A DNA stretch of 64,000 nt from Acidobacteriota bacterium (GTDB lineage: Bacteria > Acidobacteriota > Terriglobia > Terriglobales > Acidobacteriaceae). Shown here piece after piece: positions 1,255-7,899 of the stretch (position 1 is its first letter; every line of letters begins with the position of its first letter). A program made the translations under genes and the position numbers. The notes beneath the pieces were generated by a model. That model did no database searches. It was given only the letters and a program-made list of their open reading frames with translations, and was not told where the DNA came from. Location of the stretch: assembly GCA_003225175.1 (NCBI GenBank), contig QIBA01000056.1, forward strand, positions 23,790 through 87,789, given 5' to 3'.

Positions 1255-1284
1255 GTCAACCCCCGCTGAACGAGGCGAACACGA

Positions 1285-1575
1285 ACGTCACGAAGTCAAA
1301 AGAAAAGGCCACAAAGAAAGCTTCGTGACCTCATCTGTTTCCTTCGTGAGCTTCGTGTTCGCTCCTGGTTTTGAAGTACTCAATCGCCTCCATGAGACAG
1401 GGCCGCCGTCCGCTCCAGCTTTTCCCAGGAAAACGCGCGGCCATCGATCGCGCGCTTGATGGTCTTGAACAGCACCACTGAGAACACCTGGCGGTAGGTG
1501 AAGCGCTGGATCCAGATGTCGGCGAGGAGCCAATAATCTTCGTGCTGGCGTGGATCGCGGCGTTCCAGGGCGAAG
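1285..1575. repeat. Direct repeat copy B (intact copy, continuous with the EPS synthase gene 3' end)
   Basis: Same alignment as copy A. This copy runs uninterrupted into the 1380..4820 reading frame. Confidence 0.8.
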
Positions 1576-4500
1576 GCTAGTGATGACGCGAGGAAATCGA
1601 TGATCAGGAAGCTGACGAAATAGATCACCAGCTTCTGGAAGGTTGCGGGATTGGCGGCGTAGGGATGGAAGTGGCGATCGATCAGATACCAGACTGCGCT
1701 TACGATGAACATTACATCGATCAGCGGCGAGACCAGTGGAAGCATGATCTGGAAGATGACGATGTTGGGGAGCGCGAACCAGCCTAGCGCGCCGCGGCGG
1801 AGCAAAGCTCCACGGTTTTTCCAGACGGCCTGGAGAATGCCGAACGACCAGCGGAAGCGTTGGCGCATCAGGCCGCGGGCGCTTACCGGGGCTTCGGTGT
1901 AGGCTAGCGCGCGGTCTTCGTAGATGACGCGGTAGCCGCTGCGCAGGATATTCATTGTGAGATCGGCGTCTTCGGCTACGGTGATGGCGTGATAGCCGCC
2001 GGCTTTCTTCACGATCTCGGTGCGCCATGCGCCCAGTGCGCCGGGGACGACCGTGACGGCGCCGAGCAGGTCGAGCGCGCGGCGCTCGAAGTTCTGGCTG
2101 GTGATGTACTCGAGAGCCTGCCAGCGCGTCCAGATATTCACGCGATTTCCCACTTTGGCATTGCCGGCTACGGCGCCGATGCTGCGATCGGCAAAATGCG
2201 GAATCAGGCGGGCGATGGCTTCGCGGGCGATTACCGTATCGGCGTCGATGCCGATGTAGAAATCTTCGGTCACCTGCTCGAGGCCGTAGTTCAGGGCTTC
2301 AGCTTTGCCGGAATTGGGCTTGGTGAGAACTACTACTTTCCCGGCGCTAATTTCATTTTGGAACTTGCTGGTGGCGATCTCGAGCGTCCGATCCTTCGAG
2401 CCGTCGTCAATGACGATCACGCGCAGGTTGCGATAGCTCGACGCCAGCACCGAGCGAATCGTGCGCTCGATGACTTTTTCTTCGTTATACGCGGGGATCA
2501 ACACTGCGACCGCCGGCCTGAAGGCGGGATCGAGGTTTTGCGACGACGAGCCCCGAATGCGGTCGATGGTGGCGAGCGCGCCAATAATAAGGAGGCGTCC
2601 GGTCATGAGGATGTCGCCGAGGAAGAAGATCATCTGCACGCCGATGAGGACGATGCTGAACATCCAGAAGGCCAGGTTATCGACGCGCGCTGCCCACACT
2701 TCGCGCGGCGTGGTGAGCGGCGGCATCACCTGGGCGCGGGTCTGGTCGATGAGTTTCGAAACGGGAACGATCTCGTAGCCGCGGGCGCGGATGCCGTCGA
2801 TGATCAGCGGGAGGGCTCTCACGGTCTGCGAGCGGTCTCCGCCGCCGTCGTGAAGAAGAATGATGTTGCCCTTGTCGAGATCTTTGAAGACGTTTTCGGC
2901 GATCTCGGCTGCGCTGTAACGCGGGCTTAGCGACCAGTCGCTGGGGTCGATCTTGTCGCCCACGGTGATGTATCCCATGTCCTGGGTGAGCTCGAGCGGC
3001 TTGACTTCGTCGGCGGTGTCGGGCTCCTGGTCGATCGAGTAGGGCGGGCGGAAGAAGATCGGCTTTACGCCGAGCTTCGCAGCGAATAAGCGCTCGGTAA
3101 CGTTGATTTCCTTTTCGAAACGCCACGTGGAGATTTCGCTGATGTTGGGATGCGTGAGCGTGTGGTTGCCGATCTCGTGGCCCTCGTCGTTGATGCGCTT
3201 TACCAATCCGGGATCGTTCTCGGAGGGAATGCCGATGAGGAAGAATGTGGCGGGCGCGTGCTTGCGCCTGAGTATGTCGAGTATCTGCGGGGTGTAGGTT
3301 GCGTCGGGACCATCGTCAAAGGTGATCGCGATCTTCTTCTCTTTATAACCGTAAGCTTCGAGTTGATAGGGATTCGGCAGCCTGGTGAAGTGCTCGTCGG
3401 TGACGAGTTCCGTATCGGGATCGACCGTCACCACGCGCTTGCCCGGCGAGGGACGCTGCATGATGCGCAGGATCTCGCCCTGTCCTTCGATGGAAACATC
3501 CGGACCAGGGGGAACTTCGGCGAGTTTGGTTGCGGGATCGGAGGCGCGAGGCTTGTCCCAGATCTCCCAAAGTGAACGATCTTCGGAGCCGAGGCGCCAC
3601 AGCGCAAATGTCCGGATGCCGAGATTGCGCGCGGCGCGCATTTGATTCAACGCGGTGACAGCGTCGAGAAACCAGATCTGATGCGTGGTGCCGTCATCTT
3701 CGTCATACGCGAAGTGGGGATTCAGTGAATCGGAATCGAGATCGATAGGCGTTTCGGATTCGGCGGAACGAATCCACGCATCCTGCACGGAGAGGTTGCA
3801 GACGTTGGAGTGAGTGCCTTCAGGACACTCGACCGGCTTGTTGCCCCACTCGTATCCGTAATTTCCGATGGCAACGATGAGTTTGTCTTTGGGAATAACT
3901 TTCAGCGCCTTCTGAATGTTGCCGACAAAGAAGCTGTGACTGGCGACCGGTCCGGCTTTGCTCTCCGACTGGTGCTCGTCGTAATTCATAAGGATGAGGC
4001 CATCGGAGTTGTCGGCGAGGTACTTGTAGTTGAAGTCGTCGTCATCGGCGGGGACGTTGATGTACATCTTCAGTCCGCGGGAGTGGAGGTCGGCGGCCAT
4101 CTCGCCAATTAGCGCGTTGAAGCCGGGCTGAGCGGTGCGGGGAAAGTCCTCAAAGTCGACGGAAACGCCCTTGAACTTGGCGTCGGAAGAGAGAAAAGTG
4201 AGCAGTTGATGGCGGAAATTTGCGCGTCCATCGGCGTTATCGAAGAAGTCTCCGACGTTGTGAAGCCATTTTCCCGAAACGGGATCAAAGTTATTGACCA
4301 GCGGAAAGACCTCGACGTCCGCCTTGGTTTGGCGAATTAGCGGCATCACCTGGTCGTCAACCTGGTGAATTGAAGTGCCGCTAACGACGTCGAACATCTC
4401 GTTTGTGAGCGCGTCGGAGCCTTGCATGCGTCCGTCGGGCGTCAAAACGTGCAGCCATTCGGGGTATAAAAGGTCGATTTGACGAAGATATTCCTTCAGT

Positions 4501-4820
4501 GAAGAGTAACTACCTTTGTCCCAGGTGACGTAAAAGGCTGCGCGTAAGCCTTCATCTTCGTTTAATGGAACCTGGGAAGGCGGCTTTTTGGTCTTGCGAT
4601 GCGATCCGTGAGCGGCTCCAGCATGCTTTTTAGTGTCGCGCACAGGCTTATAAGCGCGCTTGATTTCCGGCCAAATCGTCTGCGGTAAGGCTTCAGAACG
4701 CAGCGCTGTGTACATAAAAACGGCGGCGACAAGCGTTATTACGAGCCCGGAAAGGCGCAAAAGCAGGCGCAGATTACGCCATCGCTTGAGTTGTGGGTCG
4801 TAAAAAACCGGCTTGGCCAT
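1380..4820 (-). CDS. Multidomain exopolysaccharide synthase. N-terminal TM anchor, GH18-like (beta/alpha)8 domain, CE4 NodB-type polysaccharide deacetylase, TM segments, processive family-2 glycosyltransferase (PgaC/NodC/chitin-synthase-like) with C-terminal TM channel region
   Basis: CE4 motifs TFDDGP, GNHTLTHP, FFRPPY, IILLHDGGG. GT2 motifs VIVIDDGS, GIDADT, AEDADL, QRFRWSFG (QxxRW). N-terminal domain has YVTWD...SVDFEDF resembling the GH18 DxDxE region. Hydrophobic helices at N-terminus, between CE4 and GT2, and at C-terminus. Confidence 0.85.
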   Translation of the reverse strand: MAKPVFYDPQLKRWRNLRLLLRLSGLVITLVAAVFMYTALRSEALPQTIWPEIKRAYKPVRDTKKHAGAAHGSHRKTKKPPSQVPLNEDEGLRAAFYVTWDKGSYSSLKEYLRQIDLLYPEWLHVLTPDGRMQGSDALTNEMFDVVSGTSIHQVDDQVMPLIRQTKADVEVFPLVNNFDPVSGKWLHNVGDFFDNADGRANFRHQLLTFLSSDAKFKGVSVDFEDFPRTAQPGFNALIGEMAADLHSRGLKMYINVPADDDDFNYKYLADNSDGLILMNYDEHQSESKAGPVASHSFFVGNIQKALKVIPKDKLIVAIGNYGYEWGNKPVECPEGTHSNVCNLSVQDAWIRSAESETPIDLDSDSLNPHFAYDEDDGTTHQIWFLDAVTALNQMRAARNLGIRTFALWRLGSEDRSLWEIWDKPRASDPATKLAEVPPGPDVSIEGQGEILRIMQRPSPGKRVVTVDPDTELVTDEHFTRLPNPYQLEAYGYKEKKIAITFDDGPDATYTPQILDILRRKHAPATFFLIGIPSENDPGLVKRINDEGHEIGNHTLTHPNISEISTWRFEKEINVTERLFAAKLGVKPIFFRPPYSIDQEPDTADEVKPLELTQDMGYITVGDKIDPSDWSLSPRYSAAEIAENVFKDLDKGNIILLHDGGGDRSQTVRALPLIIDGIRARGYEIVPVSKLIDQTRAQVMPPLTTPREVWAARVDNLAFWMFSIVLIGVQMIFFLGDILMTGRLLIIGALATIDRIRGSSSQNLDPAFRPAVAVLIPAYNEEKVIERTIRSVLASSYRNLRVIVIDDGSKDRTLEIATSKFQNEISAGKVVVLTKPNSGKAEALNYGLEQVTEDFYIGIDADTVIAREAIARLIPHFADRSIGAVAGNAKVGNRVNIWTRWQALEYITSQNFERRALDLLGAVTVVPGALGAWRTEIVKKAGGYHAITVAEDADLTMNILRSGYRVIYEDRALAYTEAPVSARGLMRQRFRWSFGILQAVWKNRGALLRRGALGWFALPNIVIFQIMLPLVSPLIDVMFIVSAVWYLIDRHFHPYAANPATFQKLVIYFVSFLIIDFLASSLAFALERRDPRQHEDYWLLADIWIQRFTYRQVFSVVLFKTIKRAIDGRAFSWEKLERTAALSHGGD

Positions 4821-4914
4821 GCGGAATTAGCGCCCGAGCTGCTAAGCTTTTCAGCTTCTAAGCGTTGTTTATGTCACGAAAAGTGCGCCTGGAAGATGTC
4901 AATTTCGCTGTTTA

Positions 4915-4953
4915 AAGCTTAGCAGCTTAGAGGCTTAGGAGCTTAGCAGCTTG
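4915..4953. repeat. Tandem 8-bp repeats containing GCTTAG (4.5 copies) running into the TTG start of the 4951 gene. Two inverted CTAAGC copies at 4842-4847 and 4858-4863 lie just upstream of the divergent EPS synthase start
   Basis: Read directly: aGCTTAGcaGCTTAGagGCTTAGgaGCTTAGcaGCTTg, and gCTAAGCttttcagcttCTAAGCg. Confidence 0.7.
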
Positions 4954-6330
4954 TTTTCGCGCAACAAACGGTACTTTTTAGTCCTTATTCTGCTGGGTTT
5001 AGCGCTGCGCGGATACTTCCTTCACTGGCATTTTCTCTTCCAGGGCGACTCATTAGTGTATGGCGATTTGGCCAAAAACTGGCTTCTACATGGCGTTTAT
5101 GGCGTCACGGACAGCGGGCAAGTGGTGCCGGTGGATATCCGAATGCCGGGATATCCAGCGTTTTTGGCGGCGATTTTCCGCTTATTTGGAGTTGAACACT
5201 ACGGCGCAGTAGTGCGGGTGCAGGTCGGAATCGACCTCTTTACGTGCTTTTTGATTGCGGCAGGAGCGCGCAGATTGTGGTCTGAGCGCGCGGGAAAAGT
5301 CGCTTTTGCGCTGGCGGCGCTGTGTCCATTTACCGCAAATTACGCCGCTACGCCTCTAGTAGAGACCTTAGCGATCTTTTCTGCGGCGTTTGCGCTGTTT
5401 TTTGCGCTGCGTGCAGTGCAGAAAATGCGCGCTGCGCCGTCCTGGGACGTCGCGCATTCGTTCGCGGTTGCCGACTGGATCCTTTCCGGATTGGGAATTG
5501 CAGTGAGTATTTATCTGCGTCCAGATGGCGGGCTACTGCTCCTAGCAATCGCTTTGTACCTTCTTTGGACGGCAATTTCGGCGCGGGAAATGGAATTTGT
5601 GTGGGTTGGCGTGCTGCTGGGAGTCGTTTCTTTGCTTCCATTGTTGCCTTGGACGCTGCGAAATTGGCGCACATTACAGCAAATCGAGCCATTAGCGCCC
5701 TTTTACGCGGAAATGCCGGGCGAATACGTGCCCAAAGGATTCAATCGCTGGACGAAAACCTGGATCGTCGACTTCATATCCGTCATGAATGTGTACTGGA
5801 ATGTGTCGGCGGAAGGTCCGGGAGAAGCGGTTGATATCAGCAATATCCCTGCTCGAACCTACGATAATCCAGCGCAAAAGCAGCGTACGGAGCAGCTTTT
5901 CGCTCAATACAATGAGGCTTTGACACTGAGTCCCGAAATGGATCGAGCTTTTGCCGAGCTTGCAGATACGCGTATTCGTGAGCGTCCCTTGCGATATTAC
6001 GTAGCGCTGCCGCTGGCAAGATTGGCGGATATGTGGCTGCGTCCGCGGACAGAGATGCTGAATCTGCAGCTTGATTGGTGGAACTGGGAGGATGTTCCGC
6101 AGGAATCAGCGATATCGGTGGCACTCGCGTTGCTGGACGTCTTCTACATCGTCGCCGCGTTGATGTCAGTGCGGCGCAAACTGCCGGGCTGCGGAATGTT
6201 ATGGATCTTGATCGTGTGCCGCTCAGCGCTGCTGGCGACACTTCCTAATCCTGAACCGCGGTACACGCTGGAGTGCTTTCCGGCTTTGCTGATGTTGGCG
6301 GGGGTCGGCTTGGCAAGAAAGACTGATTAA
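4951..6330 (+). CDS. Polytopic membrane glycosyltransferase, GT-C fold (ArnT/PMT, GT39/GT83-like)
   Basis: 459 aa with ~10 predicted TM helices and an N-terminal loop ...RGYFLHWHFLFQGDSLVYGDLAKNW... resembling the acidic first-loop motif of ArnT/PMT-type transferases. TTG start. Confidence 0.5.
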   Translation: MFSRNKRYFLVLILLGLALRGYFLHWHFLFQGDSLVYGDLAKNWLLHGVYGVTDSGQVVPVDIRMPGYPAFLAAIFRLFGVEHYGAVVRVQVGIDLFTCFLIAAGARRLWSERAGKVAFALAALCPFTANYAATPLVETLAIFSAAFALFFALRAVQKMRAAPSWDVAHSFAVADWILSGLGIAVSIYLRPDGGLLLLAIALYLLWTAISAREMEFVWVGVLLGVVSLLPLLPWTLRNWRTLQQIEPLAPFYAEMPGEYVPKGFNRWTKTWIVDFISVMNVYWNVSAEGPGEAVDISNIPARTYDNPAQKQRTEQLFAQYNEALTLSPEMDRAFAELADTRIRERPLRYYVALPLARLADMWLRPRTEMLNLQLDWWNWEDVPQESAISVALALLDVFYIVAALMSVRRKLPGCGMLWILIVCRSALLATLPNPEPRYTLECFPALLMLAGVGLARKTD

Positions 6331-6355: not shown

Positions 6356-6661
6356 TTAATCCGCGACTGGCCGATCCGACATGCGGAATTGCGTTCGGAA
6401 ATGCTCGGAGAGCAGGCCGATGGCATCCCGATTGGCGTCGGCACCGGTCTGCACCAGATATTTCATGGCTTCGACGAGCAATTTCTGGCCCTGAATGTAG
6501 CGTCTATCACTGATGCGCGGAGTGCGGCGCCGCTTCGGGTCGGGGACTACGGGGAGGGTAAATAGTCTGGCCAAGCTCGATTCCTCAAATATGCGGGAGT
6601 GGATGATGAGAGTGTTAGGAGTCAAAAACTCCATCTTCCGTTGCCCAGTATAGGTGGGCAT
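6356..6661 (-). CDS. Hypothetical small protein
   Basis: 101-aa ORF in an otherwise unassigned gap. No recognizable motif. Confidence 0.3.
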   Translation of the reverse strand: MPTYTGQRKMEFLTPNTLIIHSRIFEESSLARLFTLPVVPDPKRRRTPRISDRRYIQGQKLLVEAMKYLVQTGADANRDAIGLLSEHFRTQFRMSDRPVAD

Positions 6662-6778
6662 CTACTCGGATGAAAGAGACTTTTTGTGAAGTAACTGTCA
6701 GGTAACGCTCATTAAAACAACGCGCAGTGAATACTGCAGTCCGGAGGACCAACCTCCAATTGAGATTTGTGTGACTGT

Positions 6779-7552
6779 TTACTTTCCTTTAACTGTCTTG
6801 ACGCTTCCAGAAGTATGCAACTTGAAAGCATCGTCAGGAACTTTGCCGTTCAGCTTGATATTGGTGTAGTGCGCAATGCGATAGTCGCCAGAAGGCTCCA
6901 AGAACTGCTGTTTCAATGAGATGCCGCGCGGCGCGTCAATCCAGATGACGATCTGGCTGAACATATTTTTGACGTTCGGCGCTTTCGGGGCCAGCTCCAG
7001 CTTGGCGGTTTTCACGCCATCCACATCTTCGTCACCGCCGAACTTCACGTCGAATTGCTTGAGCAGGTCGTGTCCGCCTCCTCCAAAGCCGAGTACTAGG
7101 AAGCTTTGAAACTGGTCGCGATTCTTGCCCGCGTCGTATTCGTTTATCTGCTGGATCCTTGGCTGATAGAGCCGAACCTTGCCGTCGGCGTAAAGTACAT
7201 ACTTCTGTTCCGGCGACTGAATGTTGGCCATCATTTGTGTGTCGCCTTTGCCGGTGCGCCGATAATAGACTTTCCCTTTCTGGGTATCGGTCTCGTTCAC
7301 GACTTTCTGGTATTGATCCCAAACAAAGTCCGCCTCTGCATTACGGAACTGTCCCGACGCCGTATCCATCTGCTTTAGCACAGTTTCAAGTCGAGAATTA
7401 TGGTCAGCCGCTCCGGCGCTCCTCGTTTGTGCGAAAGCAGGGAGACACGAAAGAATCGCAAGCATCAGAGTGCCCGCAAGCAGGATTTCGCGTAGGTGCG
7501 CCAGTGCTGTGCAGCAAAGATGAGTATGAACGGGATGACGCACGATGCGCAT
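6779..7552 (-). CDS. LolA-like outer-membrane lipoprotein carrier/sorting family protein (secreted)
   Basis: Signal-peptide-like MLAILSCLPAFAQ (true start probably internal, near 7465) followed by a LolA-fold-like beta-rich sequence. Confidence 0.55.
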   Translation of the reverse strand: MRIVRHPVHTHLCCTALAHLREILLAGTLMLAILSCLPAFAQTRSAGAADHNSRLETVLKQMDTASGQFRNAEADFVWDQYQKVVNETDTQKGKVYYRRTGKGDTQMMANIQSPEQKYVLYADGKVRLYQPRIQQINEYDAGKNRDQFQSFLVLGFGGGGHDLLKQFDVKFGGDEDVDGVKTAKLELAPKAPNVKNMFSQIVIWIDAPRGISLKQQFLEPSGDYRIAHYTNIKLNGKVPDDAFKLHTSGSVKTVKGK

Positions 7553-7602
7553 GACTCTCCTCTTAAAGGTCTAACCCGAAGAAGCTCTGTTCGATTCGGA
7601 GT

Positions 7603-7899
7603 TTACAGGCGGCGTGCCCAGACCCGATAACCGGTGACCTTTCCCGAATTGTCGCGCAAGGCCTCGTAGCGCGTGATCTCAATGTTTCCGGCAATCGGCG
7701 TCAGGGTTTCCTGAAGCGCCTTTTGCGCATCGGATTCGCTGGCAGCGACGCCCGACGCGTTTAACTCATAGACAAAAGCATCAGGGCCGGTGGAGCGAAC
7801 AACAATCTCGTTGGGATGCAGGCGCAGATAGTTGGGGCTGTCCTTGAAGATACTGTGCGGGGTAAGAAAGATGAAGGCGAGGATGACAGTGACCATCAC
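7603..7899 (-). CDS. Hypothetical small membrane-anchored protein
   Basis: 98 aa with one N-terminal hydrophobic helix. No motif recognized. Confidence 0.35.
   Translation of the reverse strand: MMVTVILAFIFLTPHSIFKDSPNYLRLHPNEIVVRSTGPDAFVYELNASGVAASESDAQKALQETLTPIAGNIEITRYEALRDNSGKVTGYRVWARRL

Follow-up and report, generated by a model that had tools for sequence, protein, structure and literature searches.

A GH18-CE4-GT2 fusion protein of an Acidobacteriota bacterium as a probable self-contained exopolysaccharide synthase

In a window of 64,000 nucleotides from a soil bacterium of the Acidobacteriota, one gene was found to encode a membrane protein of 1146 aa in which a GH18 barrel, a CE4 de-N-acetylase and a GT2 synthase are joined on a single chain. 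Its architecture, intact active sites, conservation and, as a prediction, its membrane topology could be established. The protein is read as a synthase-dependent, self-contained enzyme for an exopolysaccharide, most likely partly de-N-acetylated poly-beta-GlcNAc with 1,6 or 1,4 linkage, with a probability of about 0.65. The GH18-CE4-GT2 fusion is genuine and widespread among bacteria; it extends the design of Streptomyces MatB and is not a new kind of system.

Reading frame, topology and distribution of the fusion

The gene is located on the reverse strand at 1380..4820 (stop included), and all segments of the protein described below are given on that strand. The ORF list and the translation showed one intact 1146-aa frame beginning with ATG, exactly as claimed in the first-pass annotation. 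The start codon is supported by the alignments, since M1..F6, D8, R13 and W14 at the N-terminus are kept among the homologues. The three-domain architecture with intact catalytic signatures was borne out by Pfam, motif positions, conservation, an AlphaFold model of the whole protein (pLDDT 88.5, pTM 0.75) and Foldseek. In the HMM searches GH18, Polysacc_deac_1 and Glyco_tranf_2_3 were each supported, GH18 when the N-terminal part was scanned alone. All the motifs named earlier could be located, both in CE4 (TFDDG 500, HTLTHP 553, RPPY 591, LLHDGG 655) and in GT2 (DDGS 805, DAD 859, ED 950, QRFRW 987).

Hydropathy analysis placed hydrophobic segments at residues 16-45, 713-755, 1010-1048 and 1058-1087, in agreement with the earlier claim, and together with AF2 supported the predicted order of a cytoplasmic N-terminus, TM1, periplasmic GH18 and CE4, one TM helix, cytoplasmic GT2 and C-terminal helices. 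Residues 1-40 (4701..4820) comprise a cytoplasmic motif, PVFYDPxxKRW, and TM helix 1 (15-40, a helix in AF2), which is flanked by four K/R on its N-side versus one on its C-side; F6, D8, R13 and W14 are conserved at 90% or more in the homologue alignments. A Lys/Pro-rich low-complexity periplasmic tether follows (residues 41-90; 4551..4700), which is predicted to be disordered, with AF2 pLDDT <50 for residues 51-69, and is weakly conserved in the alignments. At the junction of GH18 and CE4, AF2 shows a small all-beta linker domain (residues 440-491; 3348..3503) with strands at 441-491 modelled at a pLDDT of about 90 and with G446, G448, P457, G460 and R462 conserved. CE4 and GT2 are connected by a continuous 52-residue helix (residues 705-756; 2553..2708), which is unbroken in both AF2 models, by hydropathy crosses the membrane at about 713-735 and extends on the cytoplasmic side for the rest of its length; R742 is invariant and G735 near-invariant. 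The C-terminal helices 1011-1051, 1058-1084 and 1102-1126 (residues 1010-1126; 1443..1793), identified from hydropathy, AF2 and conservation, form a putative translocation channel and interface helix. Q1105, R1106, Y1109, R1110 and Q1111 are invariant in this region, and the BcsA alignment reaches through it.

At least 593 species-level genomes encode a full-length homologue, and clustering at 50% identity divides these proteins into more than 100 groups; Acidobacteriota, Proteobacteria, Cyanobacteria, Bacillus and Deinococcus are among the carriers. More than 120 homologues with 58-93% identity, 1140-1170 aa in length, align over 100% of the query, a length of at least 1050 aa was observed for 136 of the 150 representatives of the 50%-identity clusters, and the fusion is present on finished plasmids and chromosomes of cultured strains. 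Candidates for a culturable carrier are Granulicella paludicola DSM 22464, Bryocella elongata DSM 22489, Sphingomonas sanguinis and Bacillus mycoides. Because the frame is conserved end to end in hundreds of homologues, the fusion is neither a matter of chance nor a sequencing error. That separate genes were joined by an assembly or frameshift artefact, a concern already raised in the first-pass annotation, is refuted by these genomes, full-coverage homologues and finished replicons; nothing was found in favour of it, it deserves practically no credence, and homologue lengths and coverage confirm that the domains are not separate genes.

The GT2 and CE4 domains and the proposed product

The GT2 catalytic domain, including an interface helix at 981-1001 (residues 765-1001; 1818..2528), was assigned from Pfam, NCBIfam, identity to PgaC and Foldseek. 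It matched PF13641 (Glyco_tranf_2_3) at 3e-34, and its Foldseek matches included hyaluronan synthase (7sp7) and BcsA (4p00). In the conservation set of 150 cluster representatives (35-60% identity), D806, D859, D861, E950, D951, Q987, R988, R990 and W991 are kept in 149-150. Among the NCBIfam models PgaC/IcaA scored 179 bits versus 95 for NodC and 86 for CelA, tblastn gave 119-139 bits for pgaC/icaA genes versus 89-105 for nodC, and the identity to E. coli PgaC was 31% (E 1e-36). On these scores PgaC/IcaA is the closest characterised GT2 family. The cutoff of the PgaC_IcaA equivalog model TIGR03937 is 422 bits, and therefore the present protein is not a PgaC orthologue; that of the NodC model is 550.

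A CE4-GT2 architecture can also serve outside exopolysaccharide synthesis, as the MatB-like CE4-GT2 protein IgtG of Streptomyces glycosylates a lasso peptide (PMC11912497). However, the protein agrees with channel-forming processive synthases in QRFRW, in the interface helix and in its C-terminal helices, and no RiPP or other biosynthetic cluster surrounds the gene here or at the orthologous loci, which makes it very unlikely that GT2 is an iterative glycosyltransferase working on a peptide, protein or lipid acceptor and not a polysaccharide synthase.

The CE4 (NodB-homology) de-N-acetylase (residues 493-698; 2727..3344) matched PF01522 (Polysacc_deac_1) at 1e-32 and Bc1960 PgdA with 34-35% identity (TM 0.84, rmsd 2.4). 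D502, D503, H553, H557, R591 and H657 are kept in 150/150 cluster representatives. The NCBIfam scores were 143 bits for PdaB, 127 for PgdA and 123 for NodB, whereas PgaB barely aligned (E 0.003), and an IcaB-specific model was not among the best 25 NCBIfam matches.

Polymerisation coupled to deacetylation outside the membrane, with a poly-N-acetylhexosamine as the product, had been proposed before and is the most economical reading. The sugar is a prediction, and the sequence would fit either a PNAG-like beta-1,6 or a chitin/chitosan-like beta-1,4 linkage. Since the closest characterised relatives of GH18 and CE4 (YdhD/SleL, PgdA, NodB) have the beta-1,4-linked glycans peptidoglycan and chitin as substrates, and no GH18 that cleaves beta-1,6-GlcNAc is known to us, PNAG is not a safe product assignment. 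The same machine might instead make beta-1,4 bacterial chitin that is turned in place into chitosan-like material, with GH18 as a true chitinase-type trimmer. Beta-1,4-GlcNAc linkages are the target of the GH18 family, and the top matches in fold and sequence were chitinase-like proteins and cortex-lytic GH18s. The CE4 domain scored best against deacetylases of the peptidoglycan/chitin type, and a weak Chitin_synth_2 match was also seen in the Pfam scan. This product is regarded as possible but doubtful, as GT2 resembles NodC and hyaluronan synthase less closely than PgaC/IcaA and contains AEDADLT and QRFRWSFG, signatures of the Bcs/Pga type, where the aligned hyaluronan synthase has (E/D)DRxLT. 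Moreover, MatB, of which the CE4 is also PgdA-like, is reported to make dispersin-B-sensitive PNAG.

The GH18 domain and the proposed mechanism

The GH18 TIM barrel is of the YdhD/YaaH/SleL type (residues 91-425; 3546..4550). PF00704 was missed in the whole-protein scan and matched the N-terminal part alone with 37.7 bits versus a gathering score of 29.6 (E 2e-9). Sequence matches in the PDB were YdhD 3cz8 (E 1e-18), 5jh8 and 4s3k, and Foldseek gave TM 0.86 to 5jh8 and 0.77 to 3cz8. The signature residues D222-x-E224, M278-x-Y280-D281, W325 and W408 are all invariant, both within the protein's own clade and across 146 homologues with identities of 40-93%. The SVDFE pointed out earlier in place of the GH18 motif DxDxE is present, with DFE at 222-224 within GVSVDFE, but is not a degenerate form; according to the PDB alignments GVTIDFE and GINVDFE are the normal form in the YdhD/5jh8 subfamily. 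The YdhD/YaaH/SleL proteins share this variant (G-V-x-[IV]-D-F-E), the fold (TM 0.77-0.86) and the Y-D and Trp residues with the present domain. However, they are soluble or spore-associated and act on spore-cortex peptidoglycan, often with LysM, whereas the present GH18 belongs to bacteria that do not sporulate and is joined by a tether to a membrane synthase.

The catalytic Glu is intact here and is replaced in 36 of the 136 full-length cluster representatives (about 26%), indicating that the family as a whole does not depend on hydrolysis. As those proteins preserve the barrel together with the CE4 and GT2 sites, and inactive chitinase-like proteins such as SI-CLP are among the Foldseek matches, the domain could act here, as in a quarter of the family, mainly as a non-hydrolytic glycan-binding guide (a chitinase-like lectin) that passes the chain to CE4 or retains it at the cell surface. 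This is unlikely in view of the complete D-x-E, M-x-Y-D and Trp signature, which is invariant here and throughout the Terriglobia clade and argues that GH18 catalysis is retained under selection.

It is more doubtful still that GH18 and CE4 act on peptidoglycan and not on the nascent polymer, either by opening or modifying the wall at the site of product extrusion or by remodelling it in their own right. The cortex-lytic GH18s SleL/YaaH/YdhD and the deacetylases PgdA/PdaA/PdaB are indeed the nearest characterised relatives, and a link to peptidoglycan was also raised by the authors of the MatB study (PMC4391728). Nevertheless, CE4 is strictly co-conserved with and covalently tethered to the synthase across phyla, in monoderm Bacillus and many diderm lineages, which points to action on the product, and no LysM, SPOR or other wall-binding module was found in the protein by Pfam. 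In all synthase systems studied, as far as we know, the product is what the deacetylase and the hydrolase act on.

As a self-contained exopolysaccharide synthase, the protein would correspond to a PgaC-like processive GT2 with a 660-residue periplasmic module (tether, GH18 barrel, beta linker and CE4, in this order) inserted between its first two TM helices. The cytoplasmic GT2 would polymerise UDP-GlcNAc or a closely related UDP-HexNAc, and the chain would be pushed through a channel built of TM1, TM2 and the C-terminal helices. The tethered periplasmic CE4 would then strip some N-acetyl groups, yielding a cationic polymer, and GH18 would bind the chain and cut it, thereby setting its length or freeing it. 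GH18 catalysis uses the N-acetyl group of the substrate itself, so that the chain would be cut only where that group is still in place. In other synthase systems, the PgaB GH153 domain, the PelA hydrolase domain and BcsZ have this role.

Related systems and gene neighbourhood

MatB (CE4-GT2) and PgaB (deacetylase-hydrolase) contradict the earlier claim that other systems have a separate protein each for synthase, deacetylase and hydrolase. PelA is also a deacetylase fused to a hydrolase, and with these precedents the description as an undescribed secretion system was overstated. Streptomyces MatB combines an extracellular CE4, a TM segment and an intracellular GT2 in one protein and makes PNAG (PMC5972031, PMC4391728), and it is required for the PNAG matrix (PMC5972031). 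PgaB is described as a fused deacetylase and hydrolase in its annotation and in PMC5933820, and icaB-like deacetylases fused to a glycosyltransferase, without pgaA/pgaD, were noted earlier (PMC7112194).

MatB (SCO2962 / SLI_3306) resembles the present protein in its NodB/PgdA-like CE4, single TM helix and PgaC-like GT2, and its system, like the present locus, is without PgaA or PgaD. In contrast, MatB as described has no GH18 domain, needs a further membrane protein without recognised domains, MatA, and belongs to a monoderm actinomycete with an IcaC-like acyltransferase gene downstream. E. coli PgaABCD (synthase PgaC with PgaD, PgaB with CE4 and GH153, porin PgaA) shares the logical order of processive GT2, periplasmic de-N-acetylation and then hydrolysis of the deacetylated polymer. 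Here, however, the three activities are on one chain, the hydrolase is GH18 and not GH153, CE4 is not PgaB-like, and PgaD, PgaA and a recognisable c-di-GMP module are absent. Staphylococcal IcaADBC likewise has a PgaC/IcaA-type synthase and an extracellular CE4 of the IcaB/PgdA kind, but there IcaA and IcaB are two proteins that act together with IcaD and IcaC, and a hydrolase is lacking. Rhizobial NodC/NodB also pair a GlcNAc-polymerising GT2 with a CE4 de-N-acetylase; the products of NodC are short beta-1,4 oligomers formed in the cytoplasm, where NodB is located too, whereas the present CE4 and GT2 are predicted on opposite sides of the membrane.

Directly past the stop codon, terminator prediction and RNA folding identified a long hairpin with a T-run (1275..1362, reverse strand; terminator-like site at 1332-1305, -56.8 kcal/mol, z = -6.25) that looks like an intrinsic terminator, which suggests that the synthase gene is monocistronic. 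In Bacillus mycoides and several proteobacteria the gene is surrounded by unrelated genes, and both observations fit an enzyme without need of a dedicated operon. On the other side, the divergent intergenic region (4821..4950) contains repeats of AGCTTAGC by sequence and tandem repeat finder, with tandem copies at 4916-4952 and an inverted copy at 4839-4850, and CTTAG-rich motifs of a similar kind occur in the orthologous intergenic region of one other locus (L001). It is a candidate shared regulatory region, in which no sigma-70-like promoter was found.

Pfam on the neighbours found no PgaA- or PgaD-like gene adjacent to the synthase gene, as reported before, and no outer-membrane export component for the diderm host was identified. 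The earlier claim that partners are missing nevertheless overlooked a neighbour that is conserved in Acidobacteriota, a divergent gene at 4951..6330 on the forward strand for a PMT_2/GT-C-type polytopic membrane protein of 459 aa (PF13231, 38.5 bits, gathering score 26.1). In all Terriglobia loci whose flank is long enough, its homologue adjoins the synthase gene, and at the loci L054, L055 and L061 it lies beside it in other orientations. In 48 orthologues of this protein, D33, Y37 and R64-x-P-G-Y68 are invariant.

Domain architecture and predicted structure of the synthase

The synthase is encoded on the minus strand by an uninterrupted open reading frame, which runs from the ATG at 4820 down to 1380 and specifies 1146 aa. 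The first-pass annotation had described a fusion of a GH18-like domain, a CE4 deacetylase and a processive GT2 synthase, and indeed all motifs that it quoted could be identified in the same order: DFE (residues 222-224, inside GVSVDFE) for GH18, TFDDG (500), HTLTHP (553), RPPY (591) and LLHDGG (655) for CE4, and DDGS (805), DAD (859), AED (949-951, with ED at 950) and QRFRW (987) for GT2. Hydrophobic stretches are located at residues 16-45, 713-755, 1010-1048 and 1058-1087. The domain reading was borne out by Pfam, by matches to solved structures and by Foldseek. In a Pfam scan of the whole protein, CE4 (PF01522, 1e-32) and GT2 (PF13641, 3e-34) were identified and GH18 (PF00704) was masked; when the N-terminal region was scanned separately, GH18 scored 37.7 bits and passed the gathering threshold (29.6 bits), and all three domains are thus supported by profile searches. 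The N-terminal region also matched the solved GH18 proteins YdhD (3cz8, 1e-18), 5jh8 and YaaH/SleL.

The residues typical of each family are present. The CE4 (NodB homology) domain carries TFDD, H(S/T)xxH, RxPY and LxH; in this family, TFDD provides the catalytic base and the metal-binding Asp, H(S/T)xxH the metal-binding His pair and LxH the catalytic acid. The GH18 domain has the PF00704 barrel, the D-x-E pair, the Y-D of MxYD and the Trp of strand 8. The full DxxDxDxE motif is absent, as the sequence F-K-G-V-S-V-D-F-E keeps the last Asp and Glu only. The earlier observation of SVDFE in place of DxDxE holds for the shortened motif, but there is no degeneracy: GVSVDFE is the standard form of the YdhD/5jh8 GH18 subfamily (GVTIDFE, GINVDFE), and YdhD and 5jh8 show the same shortening. 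For GT2, the D, DxD, (T/A)ED and QxxRW motifs of processive synthases of the BcsA, PgaC or HAS type are all found, and AlphaFold and Foldseek place an interface helix after QxxRW and flanking transmembrane helices that may form a channel.

An AlphaFold model was built on an alignment of 146 homologues from the profile search (pLDDT 88.5, pTM 0.75) and replaced an earlier model based on 16 close homologues (pLDDT 58.9). In this model, a cytoplasmic N-terminus is followed by a transmembrane helix (15-40), a Lys/Pro-rich disordered tether (pLDDT <50 for residues 51-69), a (beta/alpha)8 barrel corresponding to GH18 (93-420), a small beta domain (441-491), the CE4 domain (496-698) and a single continuous helix (705-756). 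The GT2 domain spans about 765-1001 when the interface helix bearing QRFRW (981-1001) is included, with the GT-A fold alone at 771-975, and the model ends with C-terminal helices at 1011-1051, 1058-1084 and 1102-1126. Foldseek searches against the PDB matched the GT2 and membrane part to the Chlorella virus hyaluronan synthase (7sp7, E 2e-20) and to BcsA (4p00, 4hg6), the barrel to 5jh8 (TM 0.86), YdhD (3cz8, 0.77) and SleL, and the CE4 domain to the Bacillus cereus PgdA Bc1960 (TM 0.84, 34% identity).

The model predicts that GH18 and CE4 lie outside the membrane and GT2 inside, because the N-terminal flank of the first transmembrane helix follows the positive-inside rule and a single helix leads from CE4 to GT2. 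The membrane layout predicted at first pass agrees with the modeled helices and with this flank. With two N-terminal helices, the GT domain and C-terminal helices arranged as in PgaC, we infer that the synthase can be read as a PgaC-like enzyme in which the first periplasmic loop is enlarged by about 660 residues. At the extreme N-terminus (residues 1-14; 4779-4820), the cytoplasmic motif PVF(Y/F)DPxxKRW was observed, in which F6, D8, R13 and W14 are at least 90% conserved across phyla. This motif precedes the first transmembrane helix and is distant from the GT2 domain in the sequence; possible roles are docking onto the GT domain or a regulatory function.

Distribution and conservation of the fusion

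More than 120 homologues with 58-93% identity, all of 1140-1170 aa and covering 100% of the query, were found in Terriglobales/Acidobacteria assemblies. A scan of one genome per species identified at least 593 genomes with a relative, and among the best 80 of these nearly all align from residue ~1 to ~1143. An exhaustive HMMER search over 1.84 billion cluster representatives yielded 2854 clusters at E <= 1e-30; nearly all of the best 150 are 1100-1250 aa long and align over the full query. Together with the homologues on finished replicons, these full-length proteins rule out a frameshift or assembly artefact, and the three domains are encoded by one genuine gene, as had been proposed.

Carriers among the species-level genomes include the cultured Granulicella paludicola and Bryocella elongata as well as Blastocatellia and Chloracidobacterium on the acidobacterial side, and elsewhere the cyanobacterium PCC 7702, Rhodanobacter/Frateuria, Sphingomonas pituitosa, S. 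sanguinis, Caulobacterales and Gemmatimonadota. Further carriers from the profile search are Candidatus Competibacter, Candidatus Accumulibacter, Chloroflexi and Planctomycetes, and a tblastn search of plasmids contributed finished replicons from Sphingobium, Novosphingobium, Deinococcus, Bacillus mycoides, B. nitratireducens, Prevotella nigrescens and Sulfitobacter. The fusion is therefore spread over Acidobacteria, Proteobacteria, Cyanobacteria, Deinococcus, Bacillus, Gemmatimonadota and others. The plasmid homologues are annotated only as 'glycosyltransferase', which is also the sole label of the protein in public records; the automatic JGI names of these proteins already give the three COGs. 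Short representatives of 715-957 aa, apparently containing CE4 and GT2 only, were considered as natural two-domain relatives and rejected as truncated gene calls; they begin within the GH18 barrel and thus provide no evidence for such relatives in the clade.

On the Bacillus mycoides BPN52/2 plasmid p479 (L084, 6968-10318), a full-length homologue with 36% identity and 100% coverage stands alone between two ArsR-family regulator genes, near an IS4 transposase. As p479 is a conjugative plasmid of the Bacillus cereus group, the fusion is also mobile and present in monoderm bacteria.

Residue conservation was analyzed in the representatives of the best 150 of the 2854 clusters, at 35-60% identity. 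The CE4 residues D502, D503, H553, H557, R591 and H657 are kept in 150/150, and the GT2 residues D806, D859, D861, E950, D951, Q987, R988, R990 and W991 in 149-150 of 150. No variation was observed in the GH18 residues D222, E224, M278, Y280, D281, W325 and W408, either within the Terriglobia clade or in the 146 homologues (40-93% identity). Among 136 full-length distant cluster representatives, the catalytic Glu of GH18 is kept in 100 and replaced in 36 (26%) by R, K, Q, G, S, T, Y or P (for example in P0124, P0156 and P0163, representatives of 50%-identity clusters); in these proteins the barrel is retained and the CE4 and GT2 sites are fully intact. The near-complete retention of the CE4 and GT2 residues, combined with the loss of the GH18 Glu in 26%, suggests that deacetylation and polymerisation are obligatory for the family, and that GH18 hydrolysis is dispensable in some lineages, in which the domain probably serves for glycan binding only. 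The clusters lacking the Glu make up a naturally occurring series of 'chitinase-like lectin' forms of this machine, and clades with active and dead GH18 offer a direct test of the purpose of the hydrolase in such systems.

Relation to known synthases and probable nature of the polymer

Among the NCBIfam models, the GT2 region scored best with PgaC/IcaA (TIGR03937, 179.2 bits, residues 761-1106), as against 95.5 bits for NodC (TIGR04242) and 86 for CelA. Neither the equivalog cutoff of TIGR03937 (422.3 bits) nor the cutoff of TIGR04242 (550 bits) was reached. The domain is 31% identical to E. coli PgaC, and tblastn gave 119-139 bits with annotated pgaC/icaA genes, 89-105 with nodC, 94 with hasA and 83 with bcsA. 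Judged by these scores, PgaC/IcaA is the closest characterised GT2 family, and the synthase represents a separate clade, because its score lies far below the equivalog cutoff of 422.

BLASTP against E. coli PgaB aligned only 37 residues around TFDDG (E 0.003), and the CE4 domain has no relationship to PgaB outside this motif; the PgaB deacetylase domain with a C-terminal GH153 domain was not found in the synthase. Both GH18 and CE4 resemble enzymes that act on the beta-1,4-linked substrates peptidoglycan and chitin. In all characterised synthase-dependent systems that we know of, a cytoplasmic processive GT2 is followed by modifying and glycan-cleaving enzymes outside, such as PgaB (CE4 and GH153), PelA, BcsZ and AlgL. 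GH18 catalysis uses the N-acetyl group of the substrate itself. The polymer is most likely of the N-acetylhexosamine type, and most simply poly-GlcNAc, because the modifier is a de-N-acetylase and the catalysis of the cleaving family uses an N-acetyl group. Within this preferred reading, a self-contained synthase of a partly de-N-acetylated poly-beta-GlcNAc exopolysaccharide, the odds between a 1,6 and a 1,4 linkage are roughly even, because the beta-1,4-type periplasmic domains and a CE4 unlike PgaB stand against a GT2 nearest to PgaC/IcaA.

A bolder proposal, which we regard as rather unlikely, is that the family is a widespread bacterial chitin/chitosan machine. A single polypeptide would polymerise beta-1,4-GlcNAc, deacetylate the chain in the periplasm to a chitosan-like cationic polymer and size it by means of its own GH18, with a dedicated GT-C partner in Acidobacteria carrying out further transfer or decoration of the chain. 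If true, numerous bacteria of soil and wastewater, among them Terriglobia, Sphingomonadaceae, Competibacter, Accumulibacter and Bacillus mycoides, would bear chitin-type polymers in their matrix or envelope.

The closest described protein is MatB of Streptomyces, which comprises an extracellular CE4, one transmembrane helix and an intracellular PgaC-like GT2, and which is needed together with MatA for PNAG (PMC5972031, PMC4391728). Compared with the published description of MatB, the synthase has the same order of an extracytoplasmic CE4 (493-698), a helix (705-756) and a cytoplasmic PgaC-like GT2 (765-1001). A survey of pga operons also reported icaB-like deacetylases fused to GT domains, which occur in operons without pgaA and pgaD (PMC7112194). 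In the full text of open-access papers, neither the GH18-bearing three-domain form nor PNAG synthesis in Acidobacteria was found described. Features beyond the MatB type are the GH18 domain carried within the protein itself and the conserved GT-C neighbour seen in Acidobacteria. The earlier proposal of an undescribed secretion system was thus too strong; by its architecture, the three-domain form is a widespread extension of the MatB-type synthase-deacetylase with a predicted function.

If the poly-GlcNAc function is right, the fusion would surpass in compactness all synthase-dependent exopolysaccharide systems known so far, with polymerisation, translocation, charge editing and trimming on one chain and no dedicated operon. 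Its hosts include dominant soil Acidobacteria, Competibacter and Accumulibacter of activated sludge, plant-associated sphingomonads and plasmids of the Bacillus cereus group. It could supply partly deacetylated GlcNAc polymers, a material of biotechnological interest, from a single gene, and it is a natural experiment on the positioning of deacetylase and hydrolase relative to the synthase channel.

Genomic neighbourhood of the synthase gene

The synthase gene is flanked in the window by a gene for a PMT_2 protein and by a Phd/PIN toxin-antitoxin pair. At its 3' end, a strong terminator-like hairpin (1305-1332) lies within an 88-nt stem (-56.8 kcal/mol, z = -6.25), and the gene is predicted to be monocistronic with its own terminator. 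No PgaD/IcaD-type small membrane partner was found next to the synthase in the window or in the gene tables of the orthologous loci, no PgaA-, PgaD-, IcaC- or IcaD-like gene was seen in the loci examined, and no PgaA-like porin or TPR exporter adjoins the synthase in the cyanobacterial, proteobacterial and Gemmatimonadota loci. The lack of PgaA/PgaD-like partners noted at first pass was thus reproduced, but in Acidobacteria a conserved GT-C neighbour does exist.

This neighbour (4951-6330, plus strand) encodes a polytopic PMT_2/GT-C membrane protein of 459 aa (Pfam, 38.5 bits) and is transcribed divergently from the synthase. All Terriglobia loci with sufficient flanking sequence carry it directly upstream in divergent orientation, and three more acidobacterial loci (L054, L055, L061) have it next to the synthase gene in other orientations. 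Its first periplasmic loop contains the invariant D33-x3-Y37 followed by R64-x-P-G-Y68, motifs that one would expect of a functional GT-C enzyme. The protein had no match in NCBIfam or PDB sequence searches, and neither tblastn nor jackhmmer identified this partner outside Acidobacteria; in an alphaproteobacterial MAG (L058), Pfam assigns an unrelated PMT_2 gene adjoining the synthase. The conserved GT-C neighbour is a lead to a new accessory function in Acidobacteria.

Outside Acidobacteria, the synthase gene lies among unrelated genes (peptidase M3, radical SAM, succinyl-CoA ligase, ArsR regulators), those in the cyanobacterial, proteobacterial and Gemmatimonadota loci being housekeeping genes. 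This bears on a minority reading in which the GT2 would be a glycosyltransferase for a non-polysaccharide acceptor, like the MatB-like protein IgtG, which glycosylates a lasso peptide (PMC11912497); the genomic context gives no support for such a role here.

The divergent intergenic region (4821-4950) contains 4.6 tandem copies of AGCTTAGC (4916-4952) and an inverted copy, GCTGCTAAGCTT, at 4839-4850. Similar CTTAG-rich repeats occur in the same region of the orthologous locus L001, and the repeats may bind a regulator. No sigma-70-like promoter was detected in 4821-4950. Beyond the PMT_2 gene, the minus strand (6356-7899) carries a gene for a LolA-like/TP_0789-like protein (6779-7552) and a 98-aa ORF (7603-7899), which recur there in about 28 and 25, respectively, of ~50 Terriglobia loci. 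Their recurrence could reflect simple synteny or an extended envelope module.

On the other side of the synthase gene, a 293-nt direct repeat with 94% identity (copy A, 232-524; copy B, 1273-1565) brackets a cassette (594-1254) of a Phd/YefM antitoxin gene (594-836) and a PIN toxin gene (853-1254), both on the plus strand. Copy B represents the genuine 3' end of the synthase gene together with its terminator hairpin, and copy A repeats the last ~62 synthase codons in a dead form interrupted by an in-frame stop (W to stop: ...GRAFS*EKLER...). The cassette is absent from the orthologous locus L001, which is 84% identical, and the arrangement looks like a toxin-antitoxin insertion or recombination event that duplicated its target.

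On a plasmid of Sphingobium sp. TomMM7A (L085, 6370-15796), a gene for a BLUF blue-light sensor precedes the synthase homologue, and a VirJ/AcvB-like gene, an MprF-type lysyl-phosphatidylglycerol synthase and a two-component system follow on its 3' side in overlapping or abutting frames. The putative cationic polymer and lysyl-phosphatidylglycerol would both raise the positive charge of the envelope.
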